Assembly: GCA_965202685.1 (NCBI GenBank)
Contig: OZ241853.1
Span: 1,176,262 to 1,240,261, forward strand
DNA: 64,000 nucleotides
DNA from: Gammaproteobacteria bacterium
Lineage (GTDB): Bacteria > Pseudomonadota > Gammaproteobacteria > Eutrophobiales > Eutrophobiaceae
Direction: 5' to 3'
Below, one piece after another: positions 1,631-54,581 of the stretch. Both the position numbers and the translations under genes were made by a program. A model generated the notes under the pieces. It was not told the origin of the DNA. It searched no databases and was given only the letters and a program-made list of their open reading frames with translations. Numbering within the stretch: position 1 is the stretch's first letter; every line of letters begins with the position of its first letter.

Positions 1631-1636
1631 GGCCCC

Positions 1637-4137: not shown

Positions 4138-4167
4138 GAGGCGTCGAGCTATCCCTCAGCTGGCGGC

Positions 4168-6405: not shown

Positions 6406-6530
6406 ATTGCGCTATTTTTAGCCATCTGCATATCGGGTTGATTATAATACAATGGAGAAAAGTGTCTATCCCCTTGCAGAATAACAGAAAATTGAGCTAA
6501 GCCGCTTTTTAACGCCAAGCCGCGGGGCCT
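6405..6530. promoter_or_regulatory. AT-rich divergent intergenic region with a TATAAT box (6442-6447, palindromic ATTATAAT); putative promoter(s)
   Basis: Locally AT-rich (ttgattataatacaatggagaaaag) in an otherwise GC-rich window. Lies between the divergently oriented GT2 gene and the pseudogene fragment/methyltransferase. No clean -35 box was identified. Confidence 0.3.
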
Positions 6531-6697
6531 CATCGCGCCTGAAGACGAGGCTCTGCTAAAGGTTGCGGCCCGCCGCGTCGCGCTGGAAAACGCGCCGGAG
6601 GGCGGGTGTGACAAATTAAACACGGCGGGCTTGGTTGAGCGCGACTAATCCGAGGCGGCAGGGGAGCTGAAGAAAAAACTTCGGCAGACAAAAATAG
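6528..6697 (+). pseudogene. Fragment (~55 codons) of the membrane-anchored periplasmic protein family (paralog of 7611-9278 and 52851-54581)
   Basis: 6531-6695 aligns at nucleotide level with 7770-7930 of gene 7611 (…gccgcggcccg(g/c)cgcgtcgcgctggaaaacgcgccggagggcg…aaacacggcgg…aaacttcgg…). Encodes LVAAARRVALENAPEGG...; there is no start codon and it is interrupted by a stop. Confidence 0.6.
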
Positions 6698-6713
6698 TGG
6701 TAAAGTTCAACGG

Positions 6714-7457
6714 GTGTTCAACCCCCCTCCCGAGTGGCGAAAAAAAGCCAAGCTAAAACTGGAGCGAGTCCACCTCCGCGACTTAGGCAGGCACTTGTAC
6801 CGGTGTCTGCGGACCTTGCGACAATGGCCGCGGACCCTGTTGCGCGCCAACAGCCGCATTGTCCAACGCTATTTTGCGCAGACAGACGAACCGAAATTGC
6901 ATCTTGGTTGTGGCGACTGCCTGCTGGAGGGCTGGCTGAATTCGGATTTGTTTCCCTGCTCTCCGCGGGTTTTGCGCCTGGATGCGACGCGCCCGTTTCC
7001 CTTTGCGTCCAACACTTTCGCCTACGCCTACAGCGAACATCTAATTGGGTTGCTTGCCACACGGCAGGCAAAGCGCATGTTGCGCGAGTGTTTTCGCGTG
7101 TTAGCGCCGGGCGGCAAGGTGCGCATCTGCACCCCGGATCTGGCTTTCCTGATTGAACTATGCGGCCCGCAACCTTCCGCGTTGCAAGAGCGGTACATTG
7201 AGTGGGCCAGCGGCCAGTCCACCGAAAGAGGGCGGGCCGTTGTAATCAACAACATGGGCGAGACTTACGGACCCTTTGTCTATGATGAACCGCACCTGCG
7301 CGGCGTCCTCGAGGACGCCGGTTTCTCGAATATAGTCTCGCGCGACCTGAACCAGAGCGATGACGCGGCGCTACGGGACCTGGCGAACGAGAAACGGTTG
7401 CCGGAGGGGTTTTTGCGGCTTGAATCACTCACCATGGAGGGGAGCAAACCTTTTTAG
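6714..7457 (+). CDS. Class I SAM-dependent methyltransferase (Methyltransf_11/25-like)
   Basis: LHLGCGDCLLEGWLNSD (motif I, GxGxG-like), FAYAYSEHLIGLL, and RVLAPGGKVRICTPD (motif post-II/III), typical of small-molecule/sugar methyltransferases. Confidence 0.7.
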   Translation: MFNPPPEWRKKAKLKLERVHLRDLGRHLYRCLRTLRQWPRTLLRANSRIVQRYFAQTDEPKLHLGCGDCLLEGWLNSDLFPCSPRVLRLDATRPFPFASNTFAYAYSEHLIGLLATRQAKRMLRECFRVLAPGGKVRICTPDLAFLIELCGPQPSALQERYIEWASGQSTERGRAVVINNMGETYGPFVYDEPHLRGVLEDAGFSNIVSRDLNQSDDAALRDLANEKRLPEGFLRLESLTMEGSKPF

Positions 7458-7610
7458 CTTGTTTTTAGCTTGTTAGTTTTTCGTCAGGCAACTGGCGTGA
7501 GGAGCGAGGAAGGGAGTGTGCAAGCAGCACATGACTGACTGAACGCGGAAGCGCCAGGACGCATGGCGGAAAACTAACAAGCTAAAAGCTAAAATGGTAG
7601 AATTGGGTGA

Positions 7611-11899: not shown

Positions 11900-12012
11900 G
11901 GCCTAGCTTGGGGTCGGGCTTTTTGCGACACGCTGTGAATCCATCCTTGGACGCTCTCGGCGCGGCCATCCAGGCCGCACAGGGTCTTAAAGGCCCTGCC
12001 CCAAGCTACGCC
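11900..12012. repeat. ~115-nt hairpin-forming intergenic element (module C), copy 1 of 5. Candidate structured RNA or ERIC-like palindromic repeat.
   Basis: gggcctagcttggggtcgggcttttt...ccatcc...gctctcggcgcggccatccaggccgc(a/g)cagggtcttaaaggccctgccccaagct. The outer ~17-bp stem has compensatory changes across the copies at 25213-25348, 36600-36735 and 43893-44022, plus a truncated copy at 39036-39100. Confidence 0.6.
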
Positions 12013-12192
12013 CCTTTTAGCTTGTTAGTTTTCCGTTATCCTGCCTGGCGCTTCCGCGTTCAGTCAGTTTAGCTTGTCACATCCGCCATGCATCGCGGCA
12101 TTTCTTCACGCGGTCGGTCATGTATTTGACATACACTCCCTCCCGCGCTCATCATGCCGCTTGCCTGACGAAAAATTTCCGTCGCTAAATGC

Positions 12193-14283
12193 TTGTCGCG
12201 CCAGTTGCCTAACGAAAAACTTCCGTCGCTAAAACACACTTGCAGGCTCCATTATTTTGCCTGGCGCATTGACCGCTATAATGATGGCATTATGGCGGCA
12301 ATGAAAAATCGCATTGGAGAACGGATCCGGTTCCATGGCTTAGCGTTGATTGCATGCGCCCTGTTCCTCCTTGCGGGCCTCGCCATCGTCGATGACTACG
12401 GCGTTTCGGCGGACACAGACCCTCAACGGGATATCACCCTCGCTAACCTCAACCACATCCTGCATGACGGCCCAACCCTGTTGCGAAGGGCCGCTGACCA
12501 CCTCTACGGCGTCGCCTTCGAGTTGCCCCTGTTCCTGTTGACGGAACGGATCCTGGGGCTGGAAGACCCGCGTCATGTCCACTTGGCCCGCCATGTCCTG
12601 ACCCATCTGTTTTTTCTAATCGGCGGGTTCTGTTGCTATCTGCTGGCGTTTCGATTGTCCGGCGACCGGCTGGTGGCTCTGTTGGTCATGTTGCTGTTTC
12701 TCTTGTCCCCGCGTCTTTACGCCCATTCCTTTTTCAACAGCAAGGATCCGGTGTTCGCCAGCGCCTTCGTCATGGCCTTGCTCTTTGCGAGCCGCGCCTT
12801 TGACAGGGACTCGGTGGGGGCCTATCGGTGGAGCGGGATGGCAGTGGGGCTTCTCGTCAACCTGCGCATCATGGGCGTGGTTCTGTTTGCCGCCGTGTTG
12901 GTCTTTCGGGCCTGGGCCTGGTTCCGGGCCGAGGGGGGCGCGGCGCGGCGGCGGGTGGTGGCGACCACTGGCGTTTTTGCCCTGTGGGGGGGCCTTGTCT
13001 TGTTCATCAGCCTGCCCTACCTCTGGAGGGACCCCGCAGGGCGGCTGGCGGAAATGGTCGTTGCATCGGCCAATCATCCCACCACCGTTTACATGTTGTT
13101 TGGAGGGAAGGTTTTTCTCAGCGCGGCGTTGCCTTGGGACTATGTGTTGCGCTGGTTCGCCATCAGCCAGCCGCCGGTGACCCTGTTGTTGGGTTTGTTG
13201 GGCCTAGGAGCCTTGGGCCTTGCCGCTGGAAGCGTCGTCAGACGCGGCGCAGACGCCGCGCCGGGGCGCGGCTTGGGAGGGGGCGCCGAGTTGCGCTTCG
13301 GCGTCCTGCTCGCAGCCTGCTTTGCGTTGCCCCTGGTTGCTTTTGTTCTGTTGCGGCCCAATACCTACCATGGCTGGCGGCATTTTTATTTCCTGCACGG
13401 GCCGTTTTGCCTGCTGGCGACCTTCGCCCTGATGGGGATGCGCCAGCTGTCGGCGCGGGGGTTGCAAAGAAGATGGGTCGGCGGCGCGGCTTGCGCACTG
13501 ACGGCGATGGGGCTGGGCGTCGTGGTGGTCCAGATGGCGCAGATCCATCCCCACCAATATCTCTATTTCAACTTTTTTGTGGACCGGAAGACACCGGAGC
13601 GGTTGCGCGCTTGGCACGAGATGGATTACTGGAATATGACGCTACGGCAGGGTTACGAATACATGCTGAGACAGACCCCGGCCGGCGCCATTAACATCAA
13701 AGAAGACTTCGCAACAAGGAAAGAGAAGTTGGATATAGAGATTCTTCCCGCGGCAGACCGGCACCGGTTCGGCCACGACCCGACTCGCGATTTGAACTTC
13801 TATTTGGACAAAAGCCCGGGCCGGTACCTGCCGGTAGAGACTTTCCCCCCCGTTCTTTACCGGCTCAAGGTCTATAACAACACCATTATGACCATTTCCA
13901 CGCCAGATCTGTCCCGGGTTGACCCGAGGGTGGCGGAGGTGTATCGGGTCTTGCATCGAGCGGCGACGGAGGAGGAGGCGGCTCGCGGGGGCGGCTATGA
14001 AGTCCACCGGCACGGCCGGTGGCTGGCGTGGGTGAAAGAGGCTTGCGAGCCTGGGGCACTGAGGCGCGAGTTCTGGCTCAAGCTTTATCCGGCGGACGCG
14101 GGCCGCTTGCCGGCCCATCATCGGAAACGGGGCTACTTTATAATCAGCGTCCGCGGGGTGCGGTTTGACGGCAAGTGCCTGGGGGCGCGACGGCTGCCGG
14201 ACTTCGCCTTGGCCCGCGCGCGCCTGGGGCAGTCTGTTCCTGGAGGGGAGTTGCTATGGGAAACCGAGGTGCCTCTTCTTTAG
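12193..14283 (+). CDS. Array copy 1: GT-C-fold (ArnT/PMT/GtrC-like) polytopic membrane glycosyltransferase-like protein with conserved C-terminal periplasmic domain
   Basis: 696-aa ORF (likely start MAAMKNRIGE near 12292). 11 predicted TMs, DDYG in the first periplasmic loop, and conserved motifs LSPRLYAHSFFNSKDPVFASAFVMALL, WRHFYFLHGPFCLLATFAL, KVYNNT, VRFDGKCLGARRLPDFALAR. C-tail class ...LLWETEVPLL. Confidence 0.85.
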   Translation: MSRQLPNEKLPSLKHTCRLHYFAWRIDRYNDGIMAAMKNRIGERIRFHGLALIACALFLLAGLAIVDDYGVSADTDPQRDITLANLNHILHDGPTLLRRAADHLYGVAFELPLFLLTERILGLEDPRHVHLARHVLTHLFFLIGGFCCYLLAFRLSGDRLVALLVMLLFLLSPRLYAHSFFNSKDPVFASAFVMALLFASRAFDRDSVGAYRWSGMAVGLLVNLRIMGVVLFAAVLVFRAWAWFRAEGGAARRRVVATTGVFALWGGLVLFISLPYLWRDPAGRLAEMVVASANHPTTVYMLFGGKVFLSAALPWDYVLRWFAISQPPVTLLLGLLGLGALGLAAGSVVRRGADAAPGRGLGGGAELRFGVLLAACFALPLVAFVLLRPNTYHGWRHFYFLHGPFCLLATFALMGMRQLSARGLQRRWVGGAACALTAMGLGVVVVQMAQIHPHQYLYFNFFVDRKTPERLRAWHEMDYWNMTLRQGYEYMLRQTPAGAINIKEDFATRKEKLDIEILPAADRHRFGHDPTRDLNFYLDKSPGRYLPVETFPPVLYRLKVYNNTIMTISTPDLSRVDPRVAEVYRVLHRAATEEEAARGGGYEVHRHGRWLAWVKEACEPGALRREFWLKLYPADAGRLPAHHRKRGYFIISVRGVRFDGKCLGARRLPDFALARARLGQSVPGGELLWETEVPLL

Positions 14284-18837: not shown

Positions 18838-20817
18838 ATGTCTGCAATAACCAGCCGTATTGGAGAACGGATCCGGTTCCATCGTTTAGCGTTGATTGCA
18901 TGCGCCCTGTTCCTGATTACGGGCCTCGCCATCGTCGATGACTACGGCGTCTCGTGGGATACGGGGATGCAGCGTCTTGTCGCCATCAACACTGTCAACT
19001 ATATCCTGCATGGCGACCAAACCATGTTGAAAATAGAGGCTGACCGTTTCTACGGCGCCGCCTTCGAGGCGCCCCTGCTTCTGTTGACGGAACGGGGCCT
19101 GGGCCTGGAAGACCCGCGCCACGTCTATTTGGCCCGCCATGTCCTCACGCACTTGTTTTTTCTGCTTGGCGGATTCTGTTGCTATCTGTTGGCGTTTCGC
19201 TTGTCCGGCGACCGGCTGGCGGCGCTGTTGGTCATGGCGCTGTTCCTGCTGTCCCCGCGTCTCTACGCCCATTCCTTCTTCAACAGCAAGGATCCAATGT
19301 TCGCCAGCGCCTTCGTCATGGCCTTGCTCGTTGTGTGTCGCACCTTTGACAAAGACTCGGTGGGGGCCTATCGGTGGGGCGGGATGGCGATGGGACTTCT
19401 CGTCCACCTGCGCATCATGGGCGTGGTTCTGTTTGCTCTCGTGTTGGTTTTTCGGACCTGGGCCTGGTTCCGGGCCGGGGGGCGGGCGGCGCGGCGGCGG
19501 GTGGCGGCGACCACTGGGGCTTTTGCCCTGTGGGGGGGCCTTGTCTTGTTCATCAGCCTGCCCTACCTCTGGAGGGACCCCGTAGGGCGGCTTTCAGAAT
19601 ATTGGATGGCGTTGGCCGATCATCCTGCCATCCACTCTCGCGAATTGCTCCGGGGTCAGGTGTTTCCTAACACGGCGTTGCCTTGGGACTATGTGTTGCA
19701 CTGGTTCGCCATCAGCCAGCCGCCGGTGACCTTGTTATTGGGGCTGTTGGGCCTAGTGGCCTTGGGCCTTGCCGCTGGGGGCGTCGTCAGACGCAACGCG
19801 GGCGCTGGGCCGGGCGCGGCATGGGGGGGTGCCGAGTTGCGCTTTGGCGTCCTGCTCGCAACCTGCTTTGCGTTGCCGCTGGTCGCCTTTGCGCTGTTGC
19901 GGCCCACCACTCTCGATAGCTGGCGGCATTTTTATTTCCTGCACGGGCCTTTTTGTCTGCTGGCGACCTTCGCCCTGATGGGGTTGCGCCAGTTGCCGGC
20001 GCGGGGGGCGCGAAAAGGATGGGTCGGCGGCGTTGCCTGCGGGCTGACAGCGGCGGGGCTGTGCGTCGCGGCGTTGGAGATGGCGCAGATCCATCCCCAC
20101 CAATATCTCTATTTCAACTTTTTTGTGGACCGCAAAACTCCGGAACGGCTACGGACCCGCTACACCATGGATCACTGGGACATGGCGATGCGGCAGAGTT
20201 ACGAACACCTACTAAGGCAAACTCCGACCGCCGCCATTAACCTGGAAAAGCAATACCTCATCTCGAGACTCAATTTGAGTAAAATGATTCTTCCCGCGGC
20301 AGACCGGCACCGGTTCACCCACGACCCCAGTCGCGACGCGGATTTCTATTTAAACGGAAGCACAAGGCAAAGCTTCCTGCTCAAAGATCCTTTTCCTCCC
20401 GTTCTCCACCGGTTCAAGGTCTATAACAACACGATGTTGATCTTATCCACGCCGGATTTGTCCCGGGTTGACCCGGCGTTGGCGGAGGCGTATCGGGATT
20501 TGCATCGGGCGGCGACAGCAGGGGAACCGGTGGCGCGGGCGGGCGGCTTCGATGCGCACCTGCATGGCAACCGGCTGGCGTGGGTGAAGGAGGATTGCGA
20601 GCCTGGGGCGCTGAGGCGCGAGTTCTTGCTCAAGCTTTATCCGGCGGACCCGGGCCGTTTGCCGGAATCTCGCCGGCGATGGGGCTACTTCGAATTCTAC
20701 GCCCGCGGAGTGCGGTTTGACGGCAAATGCCTGGGGGCGCGACAGTTGCCGGATTTCGCCCTAACCCGGATTCGCCTGGGACAACCAGGGAAGTGGGAAG
20801 TCGACATCCCCTTTTAG
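18838..20817 (+). CDS. Array copy 4: GT-C-like membrane glycosyltransferase paralog
   Basis: 659 aa with linker class …ILPAADRHRFTHDPSRD…. Only 55 bp separate it from copy 5. Confidence 0.85.
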   Translation: MSAITSRIGERIRFHRLALIACALFLITGLAIVDDYGVSWDTGMQRLVAINTVNYILHGDQTMLKIEADRFYGAAFEAPLLLLTERGLGLEDPRHVYLARHVLTHLFFLLGGFCCYLLAFRLSGDRLAALLVMALFLLSPRLYAHSFFNSKDPMFASAFVMALLVVCRTFDKDSVGAYRWGGMAMGLLVHLRIMGVVLFALVLVFRTWAWFRAGGRAARRRVAATTGAFALWGGLVLFISLPYLWRDPVGRLSEYWMALADHPAIHSRELLRGQVFPNTALPWDYVLHWFAISQPPVTLLLGLLGLVALGLAAGGVVRRNAGAGPGAAWGGAELRFGVLLATCFALPLVAFALLRPTTLDSWRHFYFLHGPFCLLATFALMGLRQLPARGARKGWVGGVACGLTAAGLCVAALEMAQIHPHQYLYFNFFVDRKTPERLRTRYTMDHWDMAMRQSYEHLLRQTPTAAINLEKQYLISRLNLSKMILPAADRHRFTHDPSRDADFYLNGSTRQSFLLKDPFPPVLHRFKVYNNTMLILSTPDLSRVDPALAEAYRDLHRAATAGEPVARAGGFDAHLHGNRLAWVKEDCEPGALRREFLLKLYPADPGRLPESRRRWGYFEFYARGVRFDGKCLGARQLPDFALTRIRLGQPGKWEVDIPF

Positions 20818-41859: not shown

Positions 41860-43863
41860 ATGTCTGCAATAACCAACCACATCGGAGAACGGGCCCGATT
41901 CCATAGTCTGGCACTGAGCGTATGCGCCCTGTTTTTGATTACGGGCCTAGCCATCGTCGATGACTACGGCGTCTCGTTAGATGCGAATGGACAACGTCGT
42001 GTCGCCATCAACACCGTCAACTATGTCCTGCATGAAGTCCAAACCCTGTTGCGAACCCATGACCGCTTCTACGGCGCCGCCTTCGAGTTGCCTCTATTGC
42101 TGTTGACGGAACGAATCCTGGGGCTGGAAGACCCGCGCCATGTCTATCTGGCCCGCCATGTCCTGACGCACTTGTTTTTTCTAGTCGGCGGGTTCTGTTG
42201 CTATCTGTTGGCGTTTCGATTGTCCAGCGACCGGCTGGTCGCGCTGTTGGTCATGTTGCTGTTTCTCCTGTCCCCGCGTCTTTACGCCCATTCCTTCTTC
42301 AACAGCAAAGACGCGGTGTTCGCCAGCGCCTTCGTCATGGCCTTGCTCGTTGCAAGCCGCACCTTTGACAGGGACTCGGCGGGGGCCTATCGGTGGTGCG
42401 GCGCGGCGGCGGGGCTTCTCGTCAACCTGCGCATCATGGGCGTGGTTCTGTTTGCCGCCGTGTTGCTCTTTCGGGCCTGGGCCTGGTTTCGGGCCGAGGG
42501 CGCGGCGCGGCGGCGGGTGGCGGCGACCGCTGGGGTTTTTGCCCTGTGGGGTGTCCTTGTCTTGTTCATCAGCCTGCCCTATCTCTGGGAAGACCCCGTA
42601 GGGCGGCTGGCGGAAATGGTCGTGATGTTGGCCAATCATCCTAACATCGTTTTCGAACTGTTCCGGGGTCAAGTGTTTTCCAGCGCGGCGTTGCCTTGGG
42701 ACTATGTGTTGCGCTGGTTCGCCATCAGCCAGCCGCCGGTGACCTTGTTGTTGGGGTTGTTGGGTCTGGGGGCCTTGGGCCTTGCCGCTGGGGGCGTCGT
42801 CAGACGCGGCGCGGGCGCCGGGCCGGGGCGCGGTTTGGGCGCCGCCGAGTTGCGCTTCGGCGTCTTGCTTGCAAGTTGCTTTGCGTTGCCCCTAGTTGCC
42901 TTTGTCCTGTTGCGGCCTAACACCTTCCATGGCGGTCGGCATTTTTATTTCTTGCACGGGCCGTTTTGCCTGCTGGCGACATTCGCTCTGATGGGGTTGC
43001 GCCAGCTGGCGGCGCGGGGGTTGCAAAGAAGATGGGTTGGCGGCGCGGCTTGCGCACTGACGGCGGCGGGGCTGGGCGCGGCGGCGTTGGAAATGGCGCA
43101 GATCCATCCTAACCAATATCTCTATTTCAACTTCTTGGCGGACCGGAACACCCCGGAACGGTTGCGCGAGCGCTACGAGACGGATTACTGGAACATGATG
43201 TTGCGGCAAGGGTATGAACACATCCTGCGGCAAGCGCCCGCTTCCATCATTAACATGAGAACGCGAAAGGTTCAATCGTGGGCGGACATCAACCGCAATG
43301 TGCAGATTCTCCCGGCGGCGGCCCGGAGCCAGTTCACCTACGACCCCGCTCGGGACCCGTATTTCTACCTGGAAAACGCCGCCAGAAATCTGCCGCCAGG
43401 CGCGCTTAAGGACTCTTTTCCCCCCGTTCTCCACCGGTTCAAGGTCTATAACAACACGATGTTGACCGTATCCACACCAGTTCTATCTCGGGTTGACCCG
43501 GTGGTGGCGGAGGCGTATCGGGCTTTGCATCGGGCGGCCACGGCGGGGGAACCGGCGGCCCGCGGGGGGGGCTTTGATGCGCACCTGCATGGCAACCGGC
43601 TGGTGTGGGTGAAGGAGGCTTGCGAGCCTGGGGCGCTGAGGCGCAAGTTCCGGTTGGATCTTTACCCGGCGGACGCGGGCCGTTTGCCGGCCCATCACCA
43701 GAAACGGGGCTACTTTATCATCAGCGTCTTTGGGGTGCGGTTTGACGGCAAGTGCCTGGGGGCGGCGCGACTGCCGGATTTCGCCCTGGCCCGGATTCGC
43801 CTGTGGCAGTTCGTTCTTGGCGAGGATCTGCTATGGCTAACCGACATAAACTTCCACCGCTAA
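41860..43863 (+). CDS. Array copy 14: GT-C-like membrane glycosyltransferase paralog
   Basis: 667 aa; the conserved family core is present. Confidence 0.85.
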   Translation: MSAITNHIGERARFHSLALSVCALFLITGLAIVDDYGVSLDANGQRRVAINTVNYVLHEVQTLLRTHDRFYGAAFELPLLLLTERILGLEDPRHVYLARHVLTHLFFLVGGFCCYLLAFRLSSDRLVALLVMLLFLLSPRLYAHSFFNSKDAVFASAFVMALLVASRTFDRDSAGAYRWCGAAAGLLVNLRIMGVVLFAAVLLFRAWAWFRAEGAARRRVAATAGVFALWGVLVLFISLPYLWEDPVGRLAEMVVMLANHPNIVFELFRGQVFSSAALPWDYVLRWFAISQPPVTLLLGLLGLGALGLAAGGVVRRGAGAGPGRGLGAAELRFGVLLASCFALPLVAFVLLRPNTFHGGRHFYFLHGPFCLLATFALMGLRQLAARGLQRRWVGGAACALTAAGLGAAALEMAQIHPNQYLYFNFLADRNTPERLRERYETDYWNMMLRQGYEHILRQAPASIINMRTRKVQSWADINRNVQILPAAARSQFTYDPARDPYFYLENAARNLPPGALKDSFPPVLHRFKVYNNTMLTVSTPVLSRVDPVVAEAYRALHRAATAGEPAARGGGFDAHLHGNRLVWVKEACEPGALRRKFRLDLYPADAGRLPAHHQKRGYFIISVFGVRFDGKCLGAARLPDFALARIRLWQFVLGEDLLWLTDINFHR

Positions 43864-44117: not shown

Positions 44118-46118
44118 GTGTATATTAAATACATGACCGACCGCGTGAAGAAATGCCGCGATGCATGGCGGAAAACTGACAAGCTAAAAGGCTTGGCGTT
44201 GAGCGTGTGGGCCTTGTTCCTGATAGCGGGCCTCGCCATCGTCGATGACTACGGCGTCTCGTCGGCTACGGAACCCCAGCGTCTTATCGCCATCAACACC
44301 CTCAATTATGTCCTGCATAACGACCCAACCCTGTTGCAAATAGCCGCTGACCGCTTCTACGGCGCCGCCTTCGAGGCGCCCCTGTTCCTGTTGACGGAAC
44401 GGGGCCTGGGCCTGGAAGACCCGCGCCATGTCTATTTAGCTCGCCATGCCCTGACCCATCTGTTTTTTCTGCTTGGCGGGTTCTGTTGCTATCTGTTGGC
44501 GTTTCGCTTGTCCGGCAACCGGCTGGCGGCGCTGTTGGTCATGGCGCTGTTCCTGCTGTCCCCGCGTCTCTACGCCCATTCCTTCTTCAACAGCAAGGAT
44601 CCAGTGTTCGCCAGCGCCTTCGTCATGGCCTTGCTCGTTGTGAGCCGCGCCTTTGACAAGGACTCGGTGGGGGGCTATCGGTGGGGCGGGGCGGCAACGG
44701 GGCTTCTCATCCACCTGCGCGTCATGGGCGTGGTTCTGTTTGCCGCCGTGTTGCTCTTTCGGGCTTGGGCCTGGTTTCGGGCCGGGGGTGGCGCGGCGCG
44801 GCGGCGGGTTGTGGCGACCACTGGCGCTTTCGCCCTGTGGGGGGTCCTTGTCTTGTTCATCAGCCTGCCCTATCTCTGGGGCGACCCCGCAGGGCGGTTT
44901 TCAGAATATTGGACAGTGTTGGCCGACCATCCTGTCGTTTCTAATGAATTATTTCGGGGCAAGGTGTTTTCCAGCGCGGCGTTGCCTTGGGACTATGTGT
45001 CGCACTGGTTCGTCATCAGCCAGCCGCCGGTGACCTTGTTGTTGGGGCTGTTGGGCCTAGTGGCCCTGGGCCTTGCCGCTGGGGGCGTCGTCAGACGCGG
45101 CGCGGGCGCCAGGCCGGGCGCGGCATGGGGGGGTGCCGAGTTGCGCTTCGGCATGTTGCTCGCAACCTGCTTTGCGTTGCCCCTGGTCGCCTTTGCGCTG
45201 TTGCGACCTAACACCCTCACTGGCTGGCGGCATTTTTATTTCCTGCACGGGCCTTTTTGCCTGCTGGCGACCTTCGCCCTGATGGGGTTGCGCCAGCTGG
45301 CGGCGCGGGGGTTGCAAAGGGGCTTGCTGAGCGGCGCGGCGTGCGCGCTGACGGTGGTGGGACTGGGCGCGGCGGCGTTGGAGATGGCGCAGATCCATCC
45401 CAACCAGCACCTTTATTTCAACTTTTTGGCGGACCGGAAAACCCCGGAGCGGCTACGGGCCCGCTACACCATGGATTACAATTTCATGGCGATGCGGCAG
45501 GGTTACGAATACCTGTTAAGACAAACCCCGTCCGCCGCCATTAACCTGGGAAAAAATCACTTCATCTCGAGGCTCATGTGGGGTGCAATGATTCTTCCCG
45601 CGGCAGACCGGCACCAGCTCACCTACGACCGCAGTCGCGACCCGGATTTCTATTTAAGCGGAAACGCAAGGCGAATCTTCTTGCTCAAAGATCCTTTCCC
45701 CCCTGTTCTCCATCGGCTCAAGGTCTATAACAACACCATTATAACCGTATCCACGCCGGATTTGTCCCGGGTTGCCCCGGCGGTGGCGGAGGCGTATCGG
45801 GCTTTGCATCGGGCGGCGACGGCGGGGGAACCGGTGGCGCGTGCGAGCGGCTATGAAGTCCACCGGCACGGCCAGCGGCTGGCATGGGTGAAAGAGGCTT
45901 GCGAGCCTGGGGAATTGATGTCGCCGTTCTGGCTCGCGCTTTATCCGGCGGACGCGGGCCGTTTGCCGGAATCGCGCCGGCGATGGGGCTACTTTATGCT
46001 CGGCACCCTTGGGGTGCGGTTTGACGGCAAGTGCCTGGGAGCAACGCGACTGCCGGACTTCGCCCTGGCCCGGGCGCGCCTGGGGCAACCAGGGAAGTGG
46101 ATCGAGTTGCCTCTTTAG
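44118..46118 (+). CDS. Array copy 15: GT-C-like paralog with 5' end replaced (junction ~44189)
   Basis: 666-aa ORF begins in the repeat (MYIKYMTDRVKKCRDAWRKTDKLK) and joins the family sequence at GLALSVWALF. Confidence 0.75.
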   Translation: MYIKYMTDRVKKCRDAWRKTDKLKGLALSVWALFLIAGLAIVDDYGVSSATEPQRLIAINTLNYVLHNDPTLLQIAADRFYGAAFEAPLFLLTERGLGLEDPRHVYLARHALTHLFFLLGGFCCYLLAFRLSGNRLAALLVMALFLLSPRLYAHSFFNSKDPVFASAFVMALLVVSRAFDKDSVGGYRWGGAATGLLIHLRVMGVVLFAAVLLFRAWAWFRAGGGAARRRVVATTGAFALWGVLVLFISLPYLWGDPAGRFSEYWTVLADHPVVSNELFRGKVFSSAALPWDYVSHWFVISQPPVTLLLGLLGLVALGLAAGGVVRRGAGARPGAAWGGAELRFGMLLATCFALPLVAFALLRPNTLTGWRHFYFLHGPFCLLATFALMGLRQLAARGLQRGLLSGAACALTVVGLGAAALEMAQIHPNQHLYFNFLADRKTPERLRARYTMDYNFMAMRQGYEYLLRQTPSAAINLGKNHFISRLMWGAMILPAADRHQLTYDRSRDPDFYLSGNARRIFLLKDPFPPVLHRLKVYNNTIITVSTPDLSRVAPAVAEAYRALHRAATAGEPVARASGYEVHRHGQRLAWVKEACEPGELMSPFWLALYPADAGRLPESRRRWGYFMLGTLGVRFDGKCLGATRLPDFALARARLGQPGKWIELPL

Positions 46119-46348: not shown

Positions 46349-48328
46349 ATGTCTGCAATGACAAGCCGCATTGGAGGACGGATACGGTTCCATCGCTTAG
46401 CGTTGAGCGTGTGGGCCTTGTTCCTGATAGCGGGTCTCGCCATCGTCGATGACTACGGCGTTTCGTGGGATACGGGAGTCCAGCGTGGCATCGCCCTCAC
46501 CACTCTCAACTACATCCTGCCTGACAACTCAGACCGGCTGCAAAGGTTTGCTGACCGCTTCTACGGCGCCGCTTTCGAGTTGCCCCTGTTCCTGTTGACG
46601 GAACGGATCCTGGGGCTGGAGGATCCGCGCCATGTCTATCTGACCCGCCATGTCCTGACCCATCTGTTTTTTCTGCTTGGCGGGATCTGTTGCTATCTGC
46701 TGGCGTGGCGCCTGTCCAGCGACCGGCTGGCGGCGCTGTTGGTCATGTTGCTGTTCCTGCTGTCCCCGCGTCTTTACGCCCATTCCTTCTTCAACAGCAA
46801 GGATGCGCCGTTCGCCAGCGCCTTCGTCATGGCCTTGCTCGTTGTGAGCCGCGCCTTTGACAGGGACTCGTTGGGGGCCTATCGGTGGGGTGGGATGGCG
46901 GTGGGGCTTCTCATCAACCTGCGCATCATGGGCGTGGTTCTGTTTGCCGTCGTGTTGCTCTTTCGAGCCTGGGCCTGGTTTCGGGCCGGGGGTGGCGCGA
47001 CGCGGCGGCGGATTGTGGCAACCACTAGCGCTTTCGCCCTGTGGGGGGTTCTTGTCTTGTTCATCAGCCTGCCCTACCTCTGGGGCGACCCCGCAGGGCG
47101 GCTTTCAGAATATTGGACAGTGTTGGCCGATCATCCTGTCGCTCAACGCGAATTGTTCCGGGGTCAGGCGTTTTCCGGCGCGGCGTTGCCTTGGGACTAT
47201 GTGTTGCACTGGTTCGCCATCAGCCAGCCGCCGGTGACCTTGTTGTTGGGTCTGTTGGGCCTAGTGGCCTTGGGCCTTGCCGCTAAGGGCGTCGTCAGAT
47301 GCGGCGCGGACGCCGGGCCGGGGCGCGGTTTGGGCGCCGCCGAGTTGCGCTTCGGCGTCTTGCTCGCAACCTGCTTTGCGTTGCCGCTGGTTGCCTTTGC
47401 GCTGTTGCGGCCCACCACTCTCGATAGCTGGCGGCATTTTTATTTCCTGCACGGGCCTTTTTGTCTGCTGGCGACCTTCGCCCTGATGGGGTTGCGCCAG
47501 TTGCCGGCGCGGGGGGCGCGAAAAGGATGGCTGGGCGGCGCGGCGTGCGGGCTGACAGCGGCGGGGCTGTGCGTCGCGGCGTTGGAGATGGCGCAGATCC
47601 ATCCCTACCAATATCTCTATTTCAACTTTCTAGCGGACCGGAAGACCCCGGAAGGGTTGCGCGAGCGCTACGAGACGGATTACTGGTTCCTGATGTTTCG
47701 GCAAGGATATGAACACATCCTGAAGCAAACGCCCGCTTCCACCATTAACATGAGGCCGCGAGCGCCAGCGGGCATCAACCGCAATGTGTGGATTCTCCCG
47801 GCGGCGGCCCGCAACCGGTTCACCCACGACCCCGCTCGGGATCCGGATTTCTACCTGGCAAGAAACTCCGGAATTCCGCCGCCAGGCGTGCTTAAGGACT
47901 CTTTTCCCCCCGTTCTCCACCGGTTCAAGGTCTATAACAACACCATGATGACCGTTTCCACGCCAGACCTGTCTCGGGTTGACCCGGCGGTGGCGGAGGC
48001 GTATCGGGCTTTGCATCGGGCGGCGACAGCGGGGGAACCGGTGGCGCGAGAGAGCGGCTATGAAGTGCACCGGCACGGCTCGCGGCTGGTGTGGGTGAAG
48101 GAGGCTTGCGAGCCTGGGGCGTTGATGTCGCCGTTCCGGCTCAGGTTTTACCCAGCGGACGCGACCCGTTTGCCGGCCCAGCGCCAGAAACGAGACTACT
48201 TCCGACTTAGAACCAGCGGGGCGCGGTTTGACGATAAGTGCCTGGGAGCGGCGCGGTTGCCAAACTTCGCCCTGGCCCGGGTGCGCTTGGGGCAACCAGG
48301 GAAGTGGGAAGTCGACATCCCCTTTTAG
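46349..48328 (+). CDS. Array copy 16: GT-C-like membrane glycosyltransferase paralog
   Basis: 659 aa; the conserved family core is present. Confidence 0.85.
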   Translation: MSAMTSRIGGRIRFHRLALSVWALFLIAGLAIVDDYGVSWDTGVQRGIALTTLNYILPDNSDRLQRFADRFYGAAFELPLFLLTERILGLEDPRHVYLTRHVLTHLFFLLGGICCYLLAWRLSSDRLAALLVMLLFLLSPRLYAHSFFNSKDAPFASAFVMALLVVSRAFDRDSLGAYRWGGMAVGLLINLRIMGVVLFAVVLLFRAWAWFRAGGGATRRRIVATTSAFALWGVLVLFISLPYLWGDPAGRLSEYWTVLADHPVAQRELFRGQAFSGAALPWDYVLHWFAISQPPVTLLLGLLGLVALGLAAKGVVRCGADAGPGRGLGAAELRFGVLLATCFALPLVAFALLRPTTLDSWRHFYFLHGPFCLLATFALMGLRQLPARGARKGWLGGAACGLTAAGLCVAALEMAQIHPYQYLYFNFLADRKTPEGLRERYETDYWFLMFRQGYEHILKQTPASTINMRPRAPAGINRNVWILPAAARNRFTHDPARDPDFYLARNSGIPPPGVLKDSFPPVLHRFKVYNNTMMTVSTPDLSRVDPAVAEAYRALHRAATAGEPVARESGYEVHRHGSRLVWVKEACEPGALMSPFRLRFYPADATRLPAQRQKRDYFRLRTSGARFDDKCLGAARLPNFALARVRLGQPGKWEVDIPF

Positions 48329-48742
48329 CTTGTTAGTTTTCCACCATGCGTCCTGGCGTTTCCTCGCTCGGCCAGTCATGTATTTGACATACACTCCTGC
48401 CCTCGCTCCTCACGCCAGTTGCCTGACGAAAAACTTCCGTCGCTAAAATAGTTGCAGTTTTCCGTTATTTTGCCCGGTGCTTCCGCGTTCAGTCAGTTTA
48501 GCTTGTTAGTTTTCCGCCATGCATCGCGGCGTTTCCTCACGCGGTCAGTCATGTATTTAATATACACTCCATCCCGTGCTCGTCACGCCGCTTGCCTGAC
48601 GAAAAACTTCCGTCGCTAAAAGTGTTGCAGGCTCCGTTATCCTGCCTGGCGCTTCCGCGTTCAGTCAGTCATGTATTTGATATACACTCCCTCCCTCACT
48701 TGTCGCGCCAGTTGTCTAACGAAAAACTTCCGTCGCTAAAAA

Positions 48743-50729
48743 ATGGTCAATTCACCGCTTGCATGGCGGAAAACTAACAAGCTAAAACGGGCCCGATTTC
48801 ATAGTCTGGCGCTGGTCGTGTGCGCCCTGTTTTTGATAGCGGGCCTCGTCATCGTCGATGACTACGGCGTCTCGTTAGATGCGGATGGACAACGCCGTGT
48901 CGCCATCAACACCCTCAACTATGTCCTGCATGAAGTCCAAACCCTGTTGCGAACCCATGACCGCTTCTACGGCGCCGCCTTCGAGGCGCCCCTGTTCCTC
49001 TTGACGGAACGGGTCCTGGGCCTGGAAGACCCGCGCCATGTCTATTTGGCCCGCCATGTCTTGACGCACTTGTTTTTTCTAATCGGCGGGTTCTGTTGCT
49101 ATCTGCTGGCGCGGCGCTTGGCCGGCGATCGTCTGATCGCGCTGTTGGTCATGTTGCTGTTCCTGCTGTCCCCGCGTCTTTACGCCCATTCCTTCTTCAA
49201 CAGCAAGGATCCAGTGTTCGCCAGCGCCTTCGTCATGGCCTTGCTCGTCGTGAGCCGCGCCTTTGACAGGGACTCGGTGGGGGCCTATCGGGGGTGCGGG
49301 GCAATGGCAGGATTTCTCATCAACCTGCGCATCATGGGCGTGGTTCTGTTTGCCGTCGTGTTGCTCTTTCGGGCCTGGGCCTGGTTTCGGGCCGAGGGCG
49401 CGGCGCGGCGGCGGGTTGTGGCGACCGCTGGCGCTTTCGCATTGTGGGGGGGTCTTGTCTTGTTCATCAGCCTGCCTTACCTCTGGAGGGACCCCGCAGG
49501 GCGGCTGGCGGAAATGGTCGCGCTGTTGTCCCACCATCCTAACATTGTCTTCGAACTGTTCCGGGGTCAGGTGTTTTCCAGCGCGGCGTTGCCTTGGGAC
49601 TATGTGTTGCGCTGGTTCGCCATCAGCCAGCCGCCGGTGACCTTGTTGTTGGGGCTGTTGGGCCTGGGGGCCTTGGGTCTTGCCGCTGGGAGCGTCGTCA
49701 GACGCGGCGCGGGCGCCGGGCCGGGCGCGGCATGGGGGGGGGGGGGGGGGGGAGTTGCGCTTCGGCATTCTGCTGGCAACCTGTTTTGCGTTGCCCCTGG
49801 TCGCCTTTGTCCTGTTGCGGCCCACGCTTTTCGATGGCTGGCGGCATTTTTATTTCCTGCACGGGCCTTTTTGCCTGCTGGCGACCTTCGCCCTGATGGG
49901 GTTGCGCCAACTATCGGTTCGAGGGTTGCAAAGAAAATGGCACGGCGGCGTTGCCTGCGCGCTGACGGCAACGGGTCTGGGCACGGCGGCGTTGGAGATG
50001 GCGCAGATCCATCCCCACCAATATCTCTATTTCAACTTTTTTGTGGACCGGAAGACCCCGGAACGGCTAAGCGAGCGCTACGAGACGGATTACTGGAACA
50101 TGATGTTGCGGCAAGGGTATGAACACATCCTGCGGCAAGCGCCCGCTTCCACCATTAACATGAGGCCGCGATTCAACCGCAGTGTGCAGATTCTCCCGGC
50201 GGCGGCCCGGAGCCGGTTCACCTACGACCCCGAGCGGGATCCGGATTTCTACTTGGTAAGCAACACCATAAATTCGCCGTCAAGCATGCTTAAGGACTCT
50301 TTTCCTCCCGTTCTTCATCGGCTCAAGGTCTATAACAACACCATGTTGATCGTATCCACGCCGGATCTGTCCCGGGTTGACCCGGCGGTGGCGGAGGCGT
50401 ATCGGGCTCTGCATCGGGCGGCGACAGCGGAGGCGCCGGCGGCCCGGGCGGGGGGCTTCGATGCGCGCCTGCATGGCGAGCGGCTGGCGTGGGTGAAGGA
50501 GGCTTGCGAGCCCGGGGAATTGATGGCGCCGTTCCGGCTCAGGCTTTATCCGGCGGACGCGGGCCGTTTGCCTAGTGGAAGCTACTTCGAACTCGGCATC
50601 CGCGGGGTGCGGTTTGATGGCAAGTGCCTGGGGGCGGCGCGACTGCCGGATTTCGCCCTGGCCCGGATTCGCCTGTGGCAGTTCGTTCTTGGCGGAGGTT
50701 TGCTGTGGGAAACTGATATCCACTTCTAA
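48743..50729 (+). pseudogene. Array copy 17: GT-C-like paralog split by a frameshift at a G19 homopolymer (ORFs 48743-50122 and 49680-50729). Either a pseudogene or a phase-variable gene. 5' end is also the replaced type (junction 48787/48788).
   Basis: Other copies read ...ggcgcggcatgggggggtgccgagttgcgc... (GAWGGAELRFG). Here the sequence is catg + 19 G + agttgcgc, and the frame switches at the tract. The downstream ORF resumes the conserved ELRFGILLATCF... sequence. Confidence 0.7.
49734..49752 (+). repeat. Homopolymeric G19 tract inside array copy 17 (candidate slipped-strand phase-variation site, or a sequencing error)
   Basis: Counted directly: G run from 49734 to 49752. Paralogous positions in other copies carry G7-TGCCG. 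Confidence 0.8.
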
Positions 50730-50844: not shown

Positions 50845-52851
50845 ATGGTCAATTCACCGCTTGCATGGCGGAAAACTAACAAGCTAAAACGGGCCCGATT
50901 TCATAGTTTGGCGCTGGTCGTGTGGTCCCTGTTTTTGATCGCGGGCCTCGCCATTGTCGATGACTACGGCGTCTCGTGGGATGCGGGAGCCCAGCGTCTT
51001 ATCGCCATCAACACCGTCGACTATGTCCTGCATGATGACCCAGGCCGGTTACGATGGGTCGCTGACCGCTTCTACGGCGTCGCCTTCGAGTTGACCCTGT
51101 CCCTGTTGACGGAACGGGTCCTGGGGCTGGAAGACCCGCGCCATGTCTATTTGGCCCGCCATATCCTGACGCACTTGTTTTTTCTATTCGGCGGGTTCTG
51201 TTGCTATCTGCTGGCGTGGCGTCTGTCCGGCGACCGGCTGGTCGCGCTGTTGGTCATGTTGCTGTTCCTGCTGTCTCCGCGCCTGTACGCCCATTCCTTC
51301 TTCAACAGCAAGGATGCGGTGTTCGCCAGCGCCTTCGTGATGGCCTTGCTCTTTGTGTGTCGCGCCTTTGACAGGGACTCGGTGGGGGCCTATCGGTGGG
51401 GCGGGATGGCAGTGGGACTTCTCGTCCACCTGCGCATCATGGGCGTGGTTCTGTTTGCTCTCGTGTTGGTCTTTCGAGCCTGGGCCTGGTTTCGGGCCGA
51501 GGGGTGCGCGGCGCAACGACGGATTGTGGCGACCACTAGCGTCTTCGCCCTGTGGGGGGGCGTTGTCTTGTTCATCAGCCTGCCCTATCTCTGGGGCGAC
51601 CCCATAGAGCGGCTGGCGGAAATGGCCGTGGTGTCAGCTGATCATCCCATTCATCTTACCTCTTATGAGTTGTTCAGGGGGCAAGTGTTTCCTAGCGCGG
51701 CGTTGCCTTGGGACTATGTGTTGCGCTGGTTCGCCATCAGTCAGCCGCCTGTGGCCTTGTTGTTGGGGCTGTTGGGCCTGGGGGCCTTGGGTCTTGCCGT
51801 TTGGGGCGTCGTCAGGCGCGGCGCGGGTGCCGGGCCGGGCGCGGCATGGGGGGGCGCCGAGTTGCGCTTCGGCGTCCTGCTGGCAACCTGCTTCGTGTTG
51901 CCCATGGTTGCCTTTATTCTGTTGCGACCCACCACCATCGATGGCTGGCGGCATTTTTATTTCCTGCACGGGCCTTTTTGCCTGCTGGCGACCTTCGCCC
52001 TGATGAGAATGCGTCAGCTGTCAGTGCGAGGGTTGCGAAAAAGATGGGTTGGCGGCGCGGTCTGCGCACTGATGGCGGCGGGGGTGTGCGTCGTGGCCCT
52101 TGAGATGGCGCAGATCCATCCTAACCAGCATCTCTATTTCAATTTTTTTGTGGACCGGAAAACCCCGGAACGGCTAAACGAACGCTACGAGATGGATTAC
52201 TGGGACATGATGTTGCGGCAAGGATATGAACATATCCTGCGGCAAGCGCCCGCTTCCACCATTAACATGAGGCCGCGAGCGTCAGCGAACAACCGCCATG
52301 TGCAGATCCTGCCGGCGGCAGCCCGGAGCCAGTTCACCCACGACCCCGATCGGGACCCGGATTTCTACTTGGCAAGAAACGCCGGAATTCCGCCGCCAAG
52401 CTTGCTCAAGGGCTCTTTTCTCCCCGTTCTCCACCGGTTCAAGGTCTATAACAACACCATGATGACCGTTTCCACGCCGGATTTATCACGGATTGCTCCG
52501 ACGGCGGCGGATGCGTATCGGGCGTTGCATCAGGCGGCGACAGCAGGGGAACCAGCGGCCTGGGCGGGGGGGGTTGATGTGTATCTGCTTGGCGACCGGC
52601 TGGCGTGGGTGAAGGAGGCTTGCGAGCCTGGGGAATTGATGTCGCCGTTCCAGATCAGACTTTATCCGGCGGACGCGGGCCGTTTGCCTAGCGGTCTGCG
52701 GGAACGGGGTTACTTCGGACTCAGTGCCAGCGGGGTGCGGGTTGACGGCAATTGCCTATGGGGAACGCGACTGCCGGACTTCGCCCTAACCCGGATTCGC
52801 CTAAGGCAACCAGGGAAGTGGGAAGTTGAGGTAGTGGTAGAATTTGACTGA
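50845..52851 (+). CDS. Array copy 18: GT-C-like paralog. 5' end replaced (junction 50889/50890). 3' end lacks the family stop and intergenic spacer, and abuts the start of gene 52851.
   Basis: Family C-terminus ...GKWEVEV then continues VVEFD*. The stop TGA overlaps the ATG of the next gene (ttgacTGATGcc). The motif ggtagaatt at the junction matches the upstream region of paralog A (7596-7606). Confidence 0.75.
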   Translation: MVNSPLAWRKTNKLKRARFHSLALVVWSLFLIAGLAIVDDYGVSWDAGAQRLIAINTVDYVLHDDPGRLRWVADRFYGVAFELTLSLLTERVLGLEDPRHVYLARHILTHLFFLFGGFCCYLLAWRLSGDRLVALLVMLLFLLSPRLYAHSFFNSKDAVFASAFVMALLFVCRAFDRDSVGAYRWGGMAVGLLVHLRIMGVVLFALVLVFRAWAWFRAEGCAAQRRIVATTSVFALWGGVVLFISLPYLWGDPIERLAEMAVVSADHPIHLTSYELFRGQVFPSAALPWDYVLRWFAISQPPVALLLGLLGLGALGLAVWGVVRRGAGAGPGAAWGGAELRFGVLLATCFVLPMVAFILLRPTTIDGWRHFYFLHGPFCLLATFALMRMRQLSVRGLRKRWVGGAVCALMAAGVCVVALEMAQIHPNQHLYFNFFVDRKTPERLNERYEMDYWDMMLRQGYEHILRQAPASTINMRPRASANNRHVQILPAAARSQFTHDPDRDPDFYLARNAGIPPPSLLKGSFLPVLHRFKVYNNTMMTVSTPDLSRIAPTAADAYRALHQAATAGEPAAWAGGVDVYLLGDRLAWVKEACEPGELMSPFQIRLYPADAGRLPSGLRERGYFGLSASGVRVDGNCLWGTRLPDFALTRIRLRQPGKWEVEVVVEFD

Positions 52852-54581
52852 TGCCCAAACAACCCCCTTTTATCCTGTTGATCGCGGCCCTGGCTCTGGG
52901 CGCTTTCTTTGTGGCCATGTGGATCTGGCAACCCCGCATGTCCCTCCACCACTTGGCGCACTCTGCCCACAAGGCCCTGAGCGGAGCCTTGGAAATGCGC
53001 GGCCTCAGTGCGCCTGAAGACGATGACGAGTCAGTCGAATCCCTTGACGGAAGCAACGAGAAAAACACGGTGGGCCTGCTTGAGTGCGATAGGGATGAGG
53101 CGACAGAGAAAACGACGACAGAGAAAACGAGGATAAAACTTCGGGCGAAAAAATTCAGTCAACTGAGATGTCTGACAGCGCGCGTTGCCAGCCGTGAGGC
53201 GAGCGCAAAGCGCATCGAGTTCATCGCCGCCGAGAGATTCGATGACCCGGTGCTGGTAGGGGGAGGGATCGGCATGTTTCTTGAGCATTGTCCGCCCTCT
53301 CCACCGGGGCTGTCTGGGGGTTGCCTGGCGGTGGAATACTCGCGCAATGGCGAAGTGAGCCGCGCCGTGCCACTCCGGCTCCAAGCCATCAAAGAGGCCA
53401 ACATCGTTTCTGCATACAACTGGAAGGGTGAAGATCACCTCCACCGACAAGTTGATTGGCCAGAGCTGATAGTGCGCTCAGTCTCCCTTTATCCCGGTGG
53501 AGACTTGTTGGTCCATTTTGAAGTGGGTGTTCCTTTTTCCCACGGCGCCGGCGTGGCCCGCGTGGCGCAGGACGGGCGACCGCGCTGGTTTCGCGAGGAC
53601 TACAGCCAACCCTGGCCCCATATTATCGATGACAATCTCGCCTTGGTCCGAAGCAGGCAACCGCAACGACTGAGAACCAAGACTCTTCGAGTGAACCATA
53701 AGGAAAAAGTCGTGGCGTGTTATGAGAACTGGAAATGGCATGACACCGTCAACCTGATAGATGGCAGGGGACGTCTGTTGGATGAAATTGACCTCCTGGA
53801 GGCGTTGCTTGAATCCCCCTACAGCATCCTCTTTGAACGCAACTTTAACGGGCGCGACAACCCCGCTTTTACCAACTCCATACACCGCGGCGGATCTGGA
53901 TTCCCTCAGGGAGGCGGGTGCAACAATCCCGCTCTTACTAACTCCATACACCATTGCCGCCTGGCGGCCGGCACTTTGGCGGGATGCAACAACCCCGCTT
54001 TTGCTAACTCCATACACCAGCTGGGCGCCGACGCGGGCGGCGCGAACAACATCGCCCCGGGCGACATCGTGGCATCGTTGCCATTCCTCAACGCCTTCGG
54101 CATCATAGATCAGAACAACCGGCGGTTTAAGGAGCTGGTCCGGGGCAGTTTCATTCAGCAACACGCCGTTCGCCATCTTGAGAAGGCGCGGTTCCTCATG
54201 TTCGACTCGGGCAGCTTCCCGACCCGCTTGTTGATGTTTGACTTGGCCACCGGCAAGGAAACCACCCTGTTCCCCCGGGACCACACTCCGCCCCATCTGC
54301 GCCAGATTGCGCCCCTTAACTTTCCCCCCAACACCGGCTACGCTAAGAACTCCGAGTTCAAGATAGGGATACATATAGCGGTGGCGCCGGACCGACAGCG
54401 CATTCTCTTCGGCAAACCAAGGTCCGGCCTAGCTTTTGAGTTGCGCCTTTCCGACGGCCGGGTTTTGAACATTTTTCGCCAGTTGCATGATCTGTCGAGT
54501 GTCGTTAACATTCCTGACTTATTTCGGCAACGAGCGGGGGTTTTTCAGGCAACGGCTTATGACTATGCTAACCGGTTTTAG
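52851..54581 (+). CDS. Membrane-anchored periplasmic protein of unknown function (paralog B of 7611-9278), with an internal 63-bp x ~2.5 tandem repeat
   Basis: 576 aa. Same N-terminal anchor (PFILLIAALALGAFFVAMWIW) and shared blocks (CLTARVA(R/S)REASAKRIEFI, RWFR(K/E)DYS, LMxDLATGKETTLFPRDHTP, LRLSDGRVLNIFRQLHDLSSV). Repeat CNNPA(F/L)TNSIH occurs 3 times at 53862-54040. Confidence 0.8.
   Translation: MPKQPPFILLIAALALGAFFVAMWIWQPRMSLHHLAHSAHKALSGALEMRGLSAPEDDDESVESLDGSNEKNTVGLLECDRDEATEKTTTEKTRIKLRAKKFSQLRCLTARVASREASAKRIEFIAAERFDDPVLVGGGIGMFLEHCPPSPPGLSGGCLAVEYSRNGEVSRAVPLRLQAIKEANIVSAYNWKGEDHLHRQVDWPELIVRSVSLYPGGDLLVHFEVGVPFSHGAGVARVAQDGRPRWFREDYSQPWPHIIDDNLALVRSRQPQRLRTKTLRVNHKEKVVACYENWKWHDTVNLIDGRGRLLDEIDLLEALLESPYSILFERNFNGRDNPAFTNSIHRGGSGFPQGGGCNNPALTNSIHHCRLAAGTLAGCNNPAFANSIHQLGADAGGANNIAPGDIVASLPFLNAFGIIDQNNRRFKELVRGSFIQQHAVRHLEKARFLMFDSGSFPTRLLMFDLATGKETTLFPRDHTPPHLRQIAPLNFPPNTGYAKNSEFKIGIHIAVAPDRQRILFGKPRSGLAFELRLSDGRVLNIFRQLHDLSSVVNIPDLFRQRAGVFQATAYDYANRF

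Follow-up and report, generated by a model that had tools for sequence, protein, structure and literature searches.

Homopolymer-mediated phase variation of glycan genes is textbook knowledge for a few host-adapted pathogens. In the lgtA, lgtC, lgtD and lgtG genes of Neisseria, a poly-G tract lies within the coding sequence of a glycan-building enzyme, slippage moves the gene into or out of frame, and several related genes are switched independently. A similar arrangement is found in the stretch of gammaproteobacterial DNA analysed here (contig OZ241853.1, positions 1,176,262 to 1,240,261; the whole 64,000 nucleotides are referred to below as the window), where an uninterrupted run of 19 guanines, G19, breaks the reading frame of copy 17, the 17th of 19 tandem paralogs. 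The neisserial enzymes are soluble or peripheral glycosyltransferases (GT) of the GT-A/GT-B types from a cultured human pathogen in which switching has been measured, whereas copy 17 would specify an integral-membrane, GT-C-like protein of ~660 amino acids (aa), carries its tract in mid-gene, at codon 331, is the single tract-bearing member among 19 window paralogs, and belongs to an uncultured organism.

Other described systems resemble the locus in different respects. In the capsule, lipooligosaccharide and flagellar glycosylation loci of Campylobacter jejuni, G/C homopolymers are concentrated in surface-glycan genes, paralogous families carry tracts, and tract lengths vary between strains and, in Campylobacter, within strains. 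The usual length in Campylobacter is G8-G13, and its genome is AT-rich and lacks mismatch repair, while the tracts of the window lineage are G16-G23 in a genome of 60% GC. The Helicobacter fucosyltransferases are likewise switched by poly-G/poly-C. For the class of protein, the closest analogue is gtrABC of Salmonella and Shigella, whose GtrC is a phase-variable GT-C-type membrane enzyme that modifies a surface glycan. However, the gtr switch is epigenetic, depending on Dam methylation with OxyR and not on a repeat tract, and the gtr genes form single phage-borne operons instead of a 19-copy array; no GtrA/GtrB partner is evident beside each copy here. Judged by its sequence, copy 17 is a putative contingency locus, with a type of switch that is already well known and a host that is an uncultured bacterium.

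A census of all runs of at least seven showed that G19 is the only homopolymer of nine or more in the window, the next longest being 8, and the expected number of runs of 19 arising by chance on both strands, calculated from a G frequency of ~0.31, is ~3e-5. The run also exceeds the length of about eight or more G/C within an open reading frame (ORF) by which contingency loci are recognized. The features of copy 17 and of the array to which it belongs are as follows:

48743-50729, + strand: the whole of copy 17, a tandem array member whose frame is shifted by G19.
48743-49733, + strand: 5' part of copy 17, codons 1-330 in the native frame, with the DDYG motif and the PMT_2-like region.
49734-49752, + strand: the G19 homopolymer, encoding poly-Gly in a loop between predicted helices, according to the secondary structure of a low-confidence model.
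49753-50729, + strand: 3' part of copy 17; its +1 frame stays open for 325 codons, up to the normal stop of the family.
12193-56889, + strand: the tandem array; its 19 paralogs, GT-C membrane glycosyltransferase-like, have 651-696 aa and share 63-84% identity with copy 17.

Starting from the ATG at 48743, the native frame of copy 17 reads through "...GAGAGPGAAW" into the run and ends at an out-of-frame stop at 50122. The resulting product of 459 aa has its final 129 aa out of frame. The family sequence "ELRFGILLATCF..." picks up in the +1 frame directly after the run. Some run lengths restore the full ORF: when lengths of 10-25 were simulated, the multiples of three (12, 15, 18, 21 and 24) produced a single ORF of 659-663 aa and all other lengths produced truncations of 381-385 or 456-461 aa, so that the repeat number decides whether copy 17 yields its full-length product or a truncated one.

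A preliminary description of this DNA had reported that G19 shifts the frame of copy 17 and that the conserved protein sequence resumes in the +1 frame, and both statements proved correct. It had also given G7-TGCCG as the sequence of the other copies at this position. That is true of copies 4 and 15, while copy 18 has G7-CGCCG and the remaining 15 array copies have other sequences with shorter G runs. The sites that retain a G7 are:

19823-19829, + strand: homologous site of copy 4, G7 followed by TGCC-GAG, the short, in-frame state of the loop.
45127-45133, + strand: homologous site of copy 15, G7-TGCC-GAG; copy 15 is the closest window paralog of three tract-bearing copies in a related array, L080 (see below).
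51848-51854, + strand: homologous site of copy 18, G7-CGCC-GAG.

Since G19 is 7 nucleotides (nt) longer than the 12-nt G7-TGCC-G and does not contain TGCC, it is no simple miscall of a paralog sequence.

Long G runs are found at the same loop in related strains. The closest counterpart of copy 17, with 87.7% nt identity, is in L079 (ERZ25070167); its tract at this site is a G23, embedded in GCAT-G23-AGCGAG, and the gene is in frame ("AAWGGGGGGGSELRFG"). L080, a 71.6 kb sequence from the same sample as L079, contains an array that is syntenic with that of the window and has 89-96% identity to window copies 9-14. Three further copies of L080 have G21, G16 and G19 in this loop, flanked as GCAT-Gn-CGAG. 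The G16 and G19 copies are in frame (662 and 668 aa, respectively), and the gene with G21 is split at the tract, so that three of the five tract-bearing loci in the window lineage are in frame. Repeat length thus varies between strains while the flanks are conserved, as read from low-coverage long-read consensus sequences, and uninterrupted tracts of 16-23 G occupy the same site in copies that are ~12% apart in nucleotide sequence. In a neighbour-joining tree, the tract-bearing copies fall into at least two or three separate clades; therefore, the site was expanded or kept more than once. No long tract is present in L078, a fragment of a related genome, and a scan of JGI metagenomes with the pattern CATG7-N(0-25)-GAGTTGCGYTTCGG returned no matches. 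One array copy of L078 (7349-9237) is broken into pieces of 370 and 271 aa at a point that lacks a long homopolymer, an example of the ordinary frameshifts or assembly errors to which these arrays are also subject.

The part of copy 17 downstream of the tract was compared with its relatives by pairwise Nei-Gojobori estimates of the ratio of nonsynonymous to synonymous substitution (dN/dS). Values of 0.36-0.41 were obtained for copy 17 against relatives, including 0.38 (dS 0.22) for W17 against L79_3, both of which bear tracts; intact paralog pairs gave 0.32-0.63. None of the 325 codons downstream of the tract is a stop codon. Copy 17 is thus otherwise intact and under purifying selection, in the same dN/dS range as intact paralogs. 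From this downstream constraint and the lack of stops, it follows that copy 17 was read in frame through most of its past; the dN/dS result would also be compatible with a loss of function that is very recent.

An independent assembly of the same strain, L001 (ENA ERZ26167708, 59.8 kb), is 99.9% identical to window positions 40843-62847. At the site of copy 17 it has G17, against G19 in the window, and the long run is therefore not an artefact of a single assembly. Seven indels, including the tract, separate the two sequences; the other six are single-base, and all seven lie in homopolymers. All 13 substitutions fall inside 324 nt of copy 14 (window 43331-43654, L001 2489-2813), with none in the remaining ~21.7 kb. 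Recombination or gene conversion could have produced this cluster, as could the confusion of paralogs in a low-coverage assembly; no better donor for it was present among the window sequences. In L001, surA and two array copies are broken, and since its indels are homopolymeric as well, we regard this assembly as error-prone and do not take the difference between G17 and G19 as biological heterogeneity. An exact look-up of ten simulated copy 17 products (lengths 12-24) in a collection of 15 billion proteins recovered a single one, that of the G17 run in L001. When the C-terminal half was used as the query, a recorded 312-aa C-terminal fragment identical to the window came to light, and the same search led to L079 and L080.

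Tracts recur in distant members of the family. A scan of GTDB species genomes yielded no close relative of the window array, the best matches being 45-50% identical. Multi-copy homologs of 38-50% identity were found in metagenome-assembled genomes (MAGs) labelled Gammaproteobacteria, Pseudomonadales, Dehalococcoidia, Binatia and Caldilineaceae, and they carry G/C runs of 10-28 at gene positions other than that of G19, with frame breaks often exactly at the run. The tract-bearing homologs come from MAGs of four phylum-level groups. The mix of taxa would suit sponge symbionts as the source of the MAGs, a suspicion on which no argument here relies. When locus overlaps were removed and the 150 nt upstream of each gene were included in the family sequence, G/C runs of at least 10 numbered 19 in 187 kb of family sequence versus 5 in 133 kb of flanks. 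One of these five, the G11 of L039, sits inside a family gene between alignment blocks, and its reassignment changes the count to 20 versus 4. Runs outside family genes are C23 in L009 (1781-1803), C16 in L006 (5743-5758), G15 in L017 (231-245) and C15 in L065 (6123-6137); the genomes concerned may use homopolymer switches more widely.

The distant tracts differ in place and composition. In the Gammaproteobacteria MAG OZ251487 (L005, L007-L011), 11 family genes have C15-C28, encoding poly-Pro, ~11 codons after ATG/GTG; of the 11 tracts, only two share the frame of the ATG/GTG start, and another three that of a TTG inside the 6 nt before the tract. No Met codon occurs between tract and first transmembrane helix in the translated copies of this MAG. 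One Dehalococcoidia MAG has G12 and G13 at 8-9 codons after ATG, both in frame. In the Binatia MAG OZ241744 (L016, L022, L023, L026-L028, L030), an interrupted G9TG5 is the usual form, and the copies that have it are intact; the copy with uninterrupted G15 is intact as well, and copies with G14, G13 and G12 shift frame exactly at the run. The interrupted and uninterrupted runs look like one site in a locked and an unlocked version. Runs of G10-G11 lie at frame changes in another loop in Caldilineaceae and in a second Dehalococcoidia MAG. A protein-based scan of JGI metagenomes gave 72 distant relatives (no more than 31% identity), none with a G/C run of nine or more. Since tracts are present at four or more protein positions and are built from different bases, the association of tract and family must have arisen repeatedly. 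Many Binatia and Caldilineaceae homologs (L016-L040) are followed by two to four repeats of a ~110-aa C-terminal segment (query residues ~547-659), which make proteins of 800-950 aa or stand as separate downstream modules.

The array proteins show weak but consistent similarity to membrane glycosyltransferases. With the Pfam model PMT_2, the 5' ORF of copy 17 scored 27.9 bits (cut-off 26.1), and at E values of 0.01 or less PMT_2 matched 34 of 37 family members and PMT 17 of 37 (best 1.4e-7); copy 18 had no match to either. No match was obtained in an NCBIfam search with an array protein, and no PDB chain matched the family profile. The residues D39-D40-Y41-G42 are invariant in 19 of 19 copies and in 37 homologs, and follow directly after the first hydrophobic helix. 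GT-C enzymes carry an acidic motif in their first extracytoplasmic loop, directly after transmembrane helix 1, and the DDYG motif would be placed there too. An AlphaFold2 model from a shallow alignment (mean predicted local distance difference test score, pLDDT, 44; predicted template modelling score, pTM, 0.32) was too poor for a fold search; this low-confidence model has many helices followed by a strand-rich C-terminal part, and the tract-encoded residues fall between two long helices, in a stretch that is not helical. Window positions 503-7457, upstream of clpA and the array, are taken up by a polysaccharide biosynthesis locus with a GT4 glycosyltransferase, a Wzx-like flippase, a 745-aa double GT2 protein and a methyltransferase. 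With the PMT_2/PMT matches, the invariant motif and this adjacent locus, the label "glycan-modifying" used in the preliminary description appears reasonable, if provisional, for these putative glycosyltransferase-like genes.

Apart from copy 17, all 18 array copies are intact, as are the housekeeping genes in the window. The array is followed by rsmA-pdxA-surA-lptD, an order that matches the E. coli lptD-surA-pdxA-rsmA cluster and marks the organism as a Gram-negative proteobacterium. It is interrupted once, by an unrelated 576-aa ORF (52851-54581, + strand) whose start abuts the stop of copy 18. This ORF holds a three-fold "NNPAxTNSIH" motif and has no Pfam and no NCBIfam match; in L078, an ORF of 539 aa (11992-13611) likewise follows an array copy, in a comparable position. 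The array coding strand is G-rich, with positive GC skew throughout, and of the glycine codons, 39% are GGG in the 18 intact copies versus 17% in clpA, lptD and surA. A scan of the window for tRNA genes found none.

We consider it probable that G19 is a real, hypermutable slipped-strand on/off contingency site in copy 17. The preliminary description had proposed such a site as a candidate, and its proposal gains support from the length differences between assemblies and strains, from downstream sequence that is not degenerating and from family tracts that recur in other phyla; the polysaccharide locus adjoining the array counts in its favour as well. Replication slippage would add G's to the run of copy 17 or remove them. 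Lengths divisible by three (18, 21 and so on) would yield the full-length protein of ~661 aa with a few extra glycines in an inter-helix loop, and other lengths would truncate it after residue 330, with loss of the last transmembrane helices and of the ~250-aa C-terminal domain. The likely outcome would be the stochastic presence or absence of one among many paralogous surface-glycan modifications. We infer within-population switching, an enzymatic function of the product and an adaptive value of the variation.

Several observations weigh against a contingency site. The G tract is found in one of the 19 window copies only; therefore, the phenotypic effect of switching may be small. Both lengths recorded for the strain, 17 and 19, are out of frame, and no intact copy 17 product of any simulated length is present among the 15 billion proteins. 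The names of the related contigs carry "3x" to "5.88x", which we read as low coverage, and run lengths are accordingly uncertain by a base or two. About one-third of all examined tract-bearing genes are in frame, the proportion expected from random lengths, and random lengths would come from switching or from error alike. The glycosyltransferase assignment is weak, with PMT_2 near or below its curated cut-off, no PDB match and a pLDDT of 44. Finally, G17 versus G19 could be a consensus error, given seven of seven indels in homopolymers and broken housekeeping genes in L001, and may reflect read error in part. The preliminary description had warned that a G19 tract is a source of sequencing and assembly error; the homopolymeric indels would fit this for the length, while the occurrence of a long run in more than one assembly and in related strains speaks against it for the tract as such.

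A stronger form of this caution, in which the tract is real, its true length is in frame (G18 or G21) and copy 17 is intact but miscalled, seems unlikely to us. Long-read assemblies do miscall long homopolymers; here, same-strain assemblies disagree on the length, every other indel between them is homopolymeric, the frame returns once one or two bases are gained or lost, copy 17 is otherwise undamaged and constrained, and the other 18 copies and the housekeeping genes are intact. Yet an in-frame run of 18-21 G would still be highly unstable, going by the poly-G tracts of Neisseria and Campylobacter, whose instability is established, so that a length error would alter the present state of the gene and not the mechanism; clear out-of-frame states are also found at homologous tracts (G21 in L080, G12-G14 in Binatia). 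Neutral decay, in which a G7 seed in a glycine-tolerant loop grew by runaway slippage in a redundant array and copy 17 is a recent pseudogene that does not switch, is in our judgement equally improbable. With 18 other copies, selection on any single one is probably weak, the dN/dS of the family is fairly high (0.3-0.6), the GGG-rich codon usage makes seeds for G runs common, paralogs already have G7 at the site, and the tract-free split copy of L078 shows that ordinary pseudogenes occur in these arrays. Against decay stand the persistence of 16-23 G with no interrupting substitutions across the ~12% nucleotide divergence, a downstream frame that is open and constrained like that of intact copies, the in-frame state of three of the five tract-bearing loci, and the tracts that family members in other phyla acquired independently near their 5' ends, which are hard to obtain by drift alone. 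We give very little credence to a rescue at the level of RNA or translation, by which RNA polymerase slipping, or ribosomes shifting frame, on the G run would make some full-length protein from an out-of-frame template, and the tract would tune dose or isoforms instead of acting as a genetic switch. It would account for a downstream frame that is conserved though both recorded lengths are out of frame, and transcriptional slippage is established at long homopolymers, e.g., the poly-A tracts of insect endosymbionts. However, such slippage is best documented at A/T rather than G/C runs, and no Rfam family was matched by the window, no search aimed at frameshift-stimulating structures having been made.

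A slipped-strand site in copy 17 may not be the only switch acting on the array. In the invertible promoters of the Bacteroides fragilis capsular loci and in E. coli fimS, intergenic segments bounded by short inverted repeats occur in either orientation in front of surface-structure genes, and this comparison applies to the array spacers, not to G19. Inverted copies of the 20-nt element TTTTAGCTTGTTAGTTTTCC delimit every array spacer (window 12015-57008), and each spacer holds one to three copies of the 25-nt element TTTAGCGACGGAARTTTTTCGYCAG, which is in "+" orientation in 8 spacers and in "-" orientation in 11. The spacing is mirror-symmetric, the distance from inverted repeat to 25-nt element being 80 nt in both orientation classes. 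When orthologous spacers of the window and L080 were compared, the interiors before copies 14 and 11 aligned in reverse while the flanking genes aligned forward; a segment flanked by inverted repeats is thus found in both orientations at orthologous sites, the pattern that DNA inversion between the repeats would yield. An inverted pair of TTTTAGCTTGTTAGTTTTCC is also present at 7463/7568, upstream of the ORF 7611-9278. The spacer of copy 17 is the following:

48323-48787, no strand assigned: spacer upstream of copy 17, with TTTTAGCTTGTTAGTTTTCC in + orientation at 48323 and in - orientation at 48768, in the first codons of copy 17.

This spacer holds three copies of the 25-nt element, in "-" orientation, and is a candidate invertible segment, possibly a second switch on the same gene. 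The comparison suggests that the array spacers as a whole are candidate invertible promoter segments, forming a second switching layer, and spacer inversion appears to point to selection for variable expression of the array, which provides supporting context for a contingency site in copy 17. The analogy with B. fragilis and fimS differs in that no recombinase domain was found in the scanned window ORFs (a recombinase could lie elsewhere in the genome) and no promoter is assigned: promoter-like sites are no more frequent than in shuffled sequence. A terminator scan likewise gave no excess over shuffled controls.

We tentatively propose, with somewhat more doubt than conviction, that an expanded GT-C-like family with independent G/C switches at four or more positions in four groups (MAGs labelled Gammaproteobacteria, Dehalococcoidia, Binatia and Caldilineaceae), combined in the window lineage with invertible spacers, constitutes a two-layer system of combinatorial surface-glycan variation in uncultured bacteria. 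A literature search found no description of such a combination of expanded family, repeated tracts and invertible spacers; it also returned nothing about the array family, nor about phase variation mediated by repeats in MAGs or sponge symbionts. We know of no repeat-mediated phase variation in the phyla concerned. Homopolymer switches are rarely recognized in MAGs, where they tend to be handled as frameshift errors or pseudogenes. For annotation, this means that frame breaks at G/C runs of at least 10 in members of this family should not be automatically corrected or called pseudogenes. If sequencing reads show length heterogeneity at such runs, stochastic switching of surface glycans, possibly driven by phage or host recognition, would extend to uncultured environmental or host-associated bacteria.

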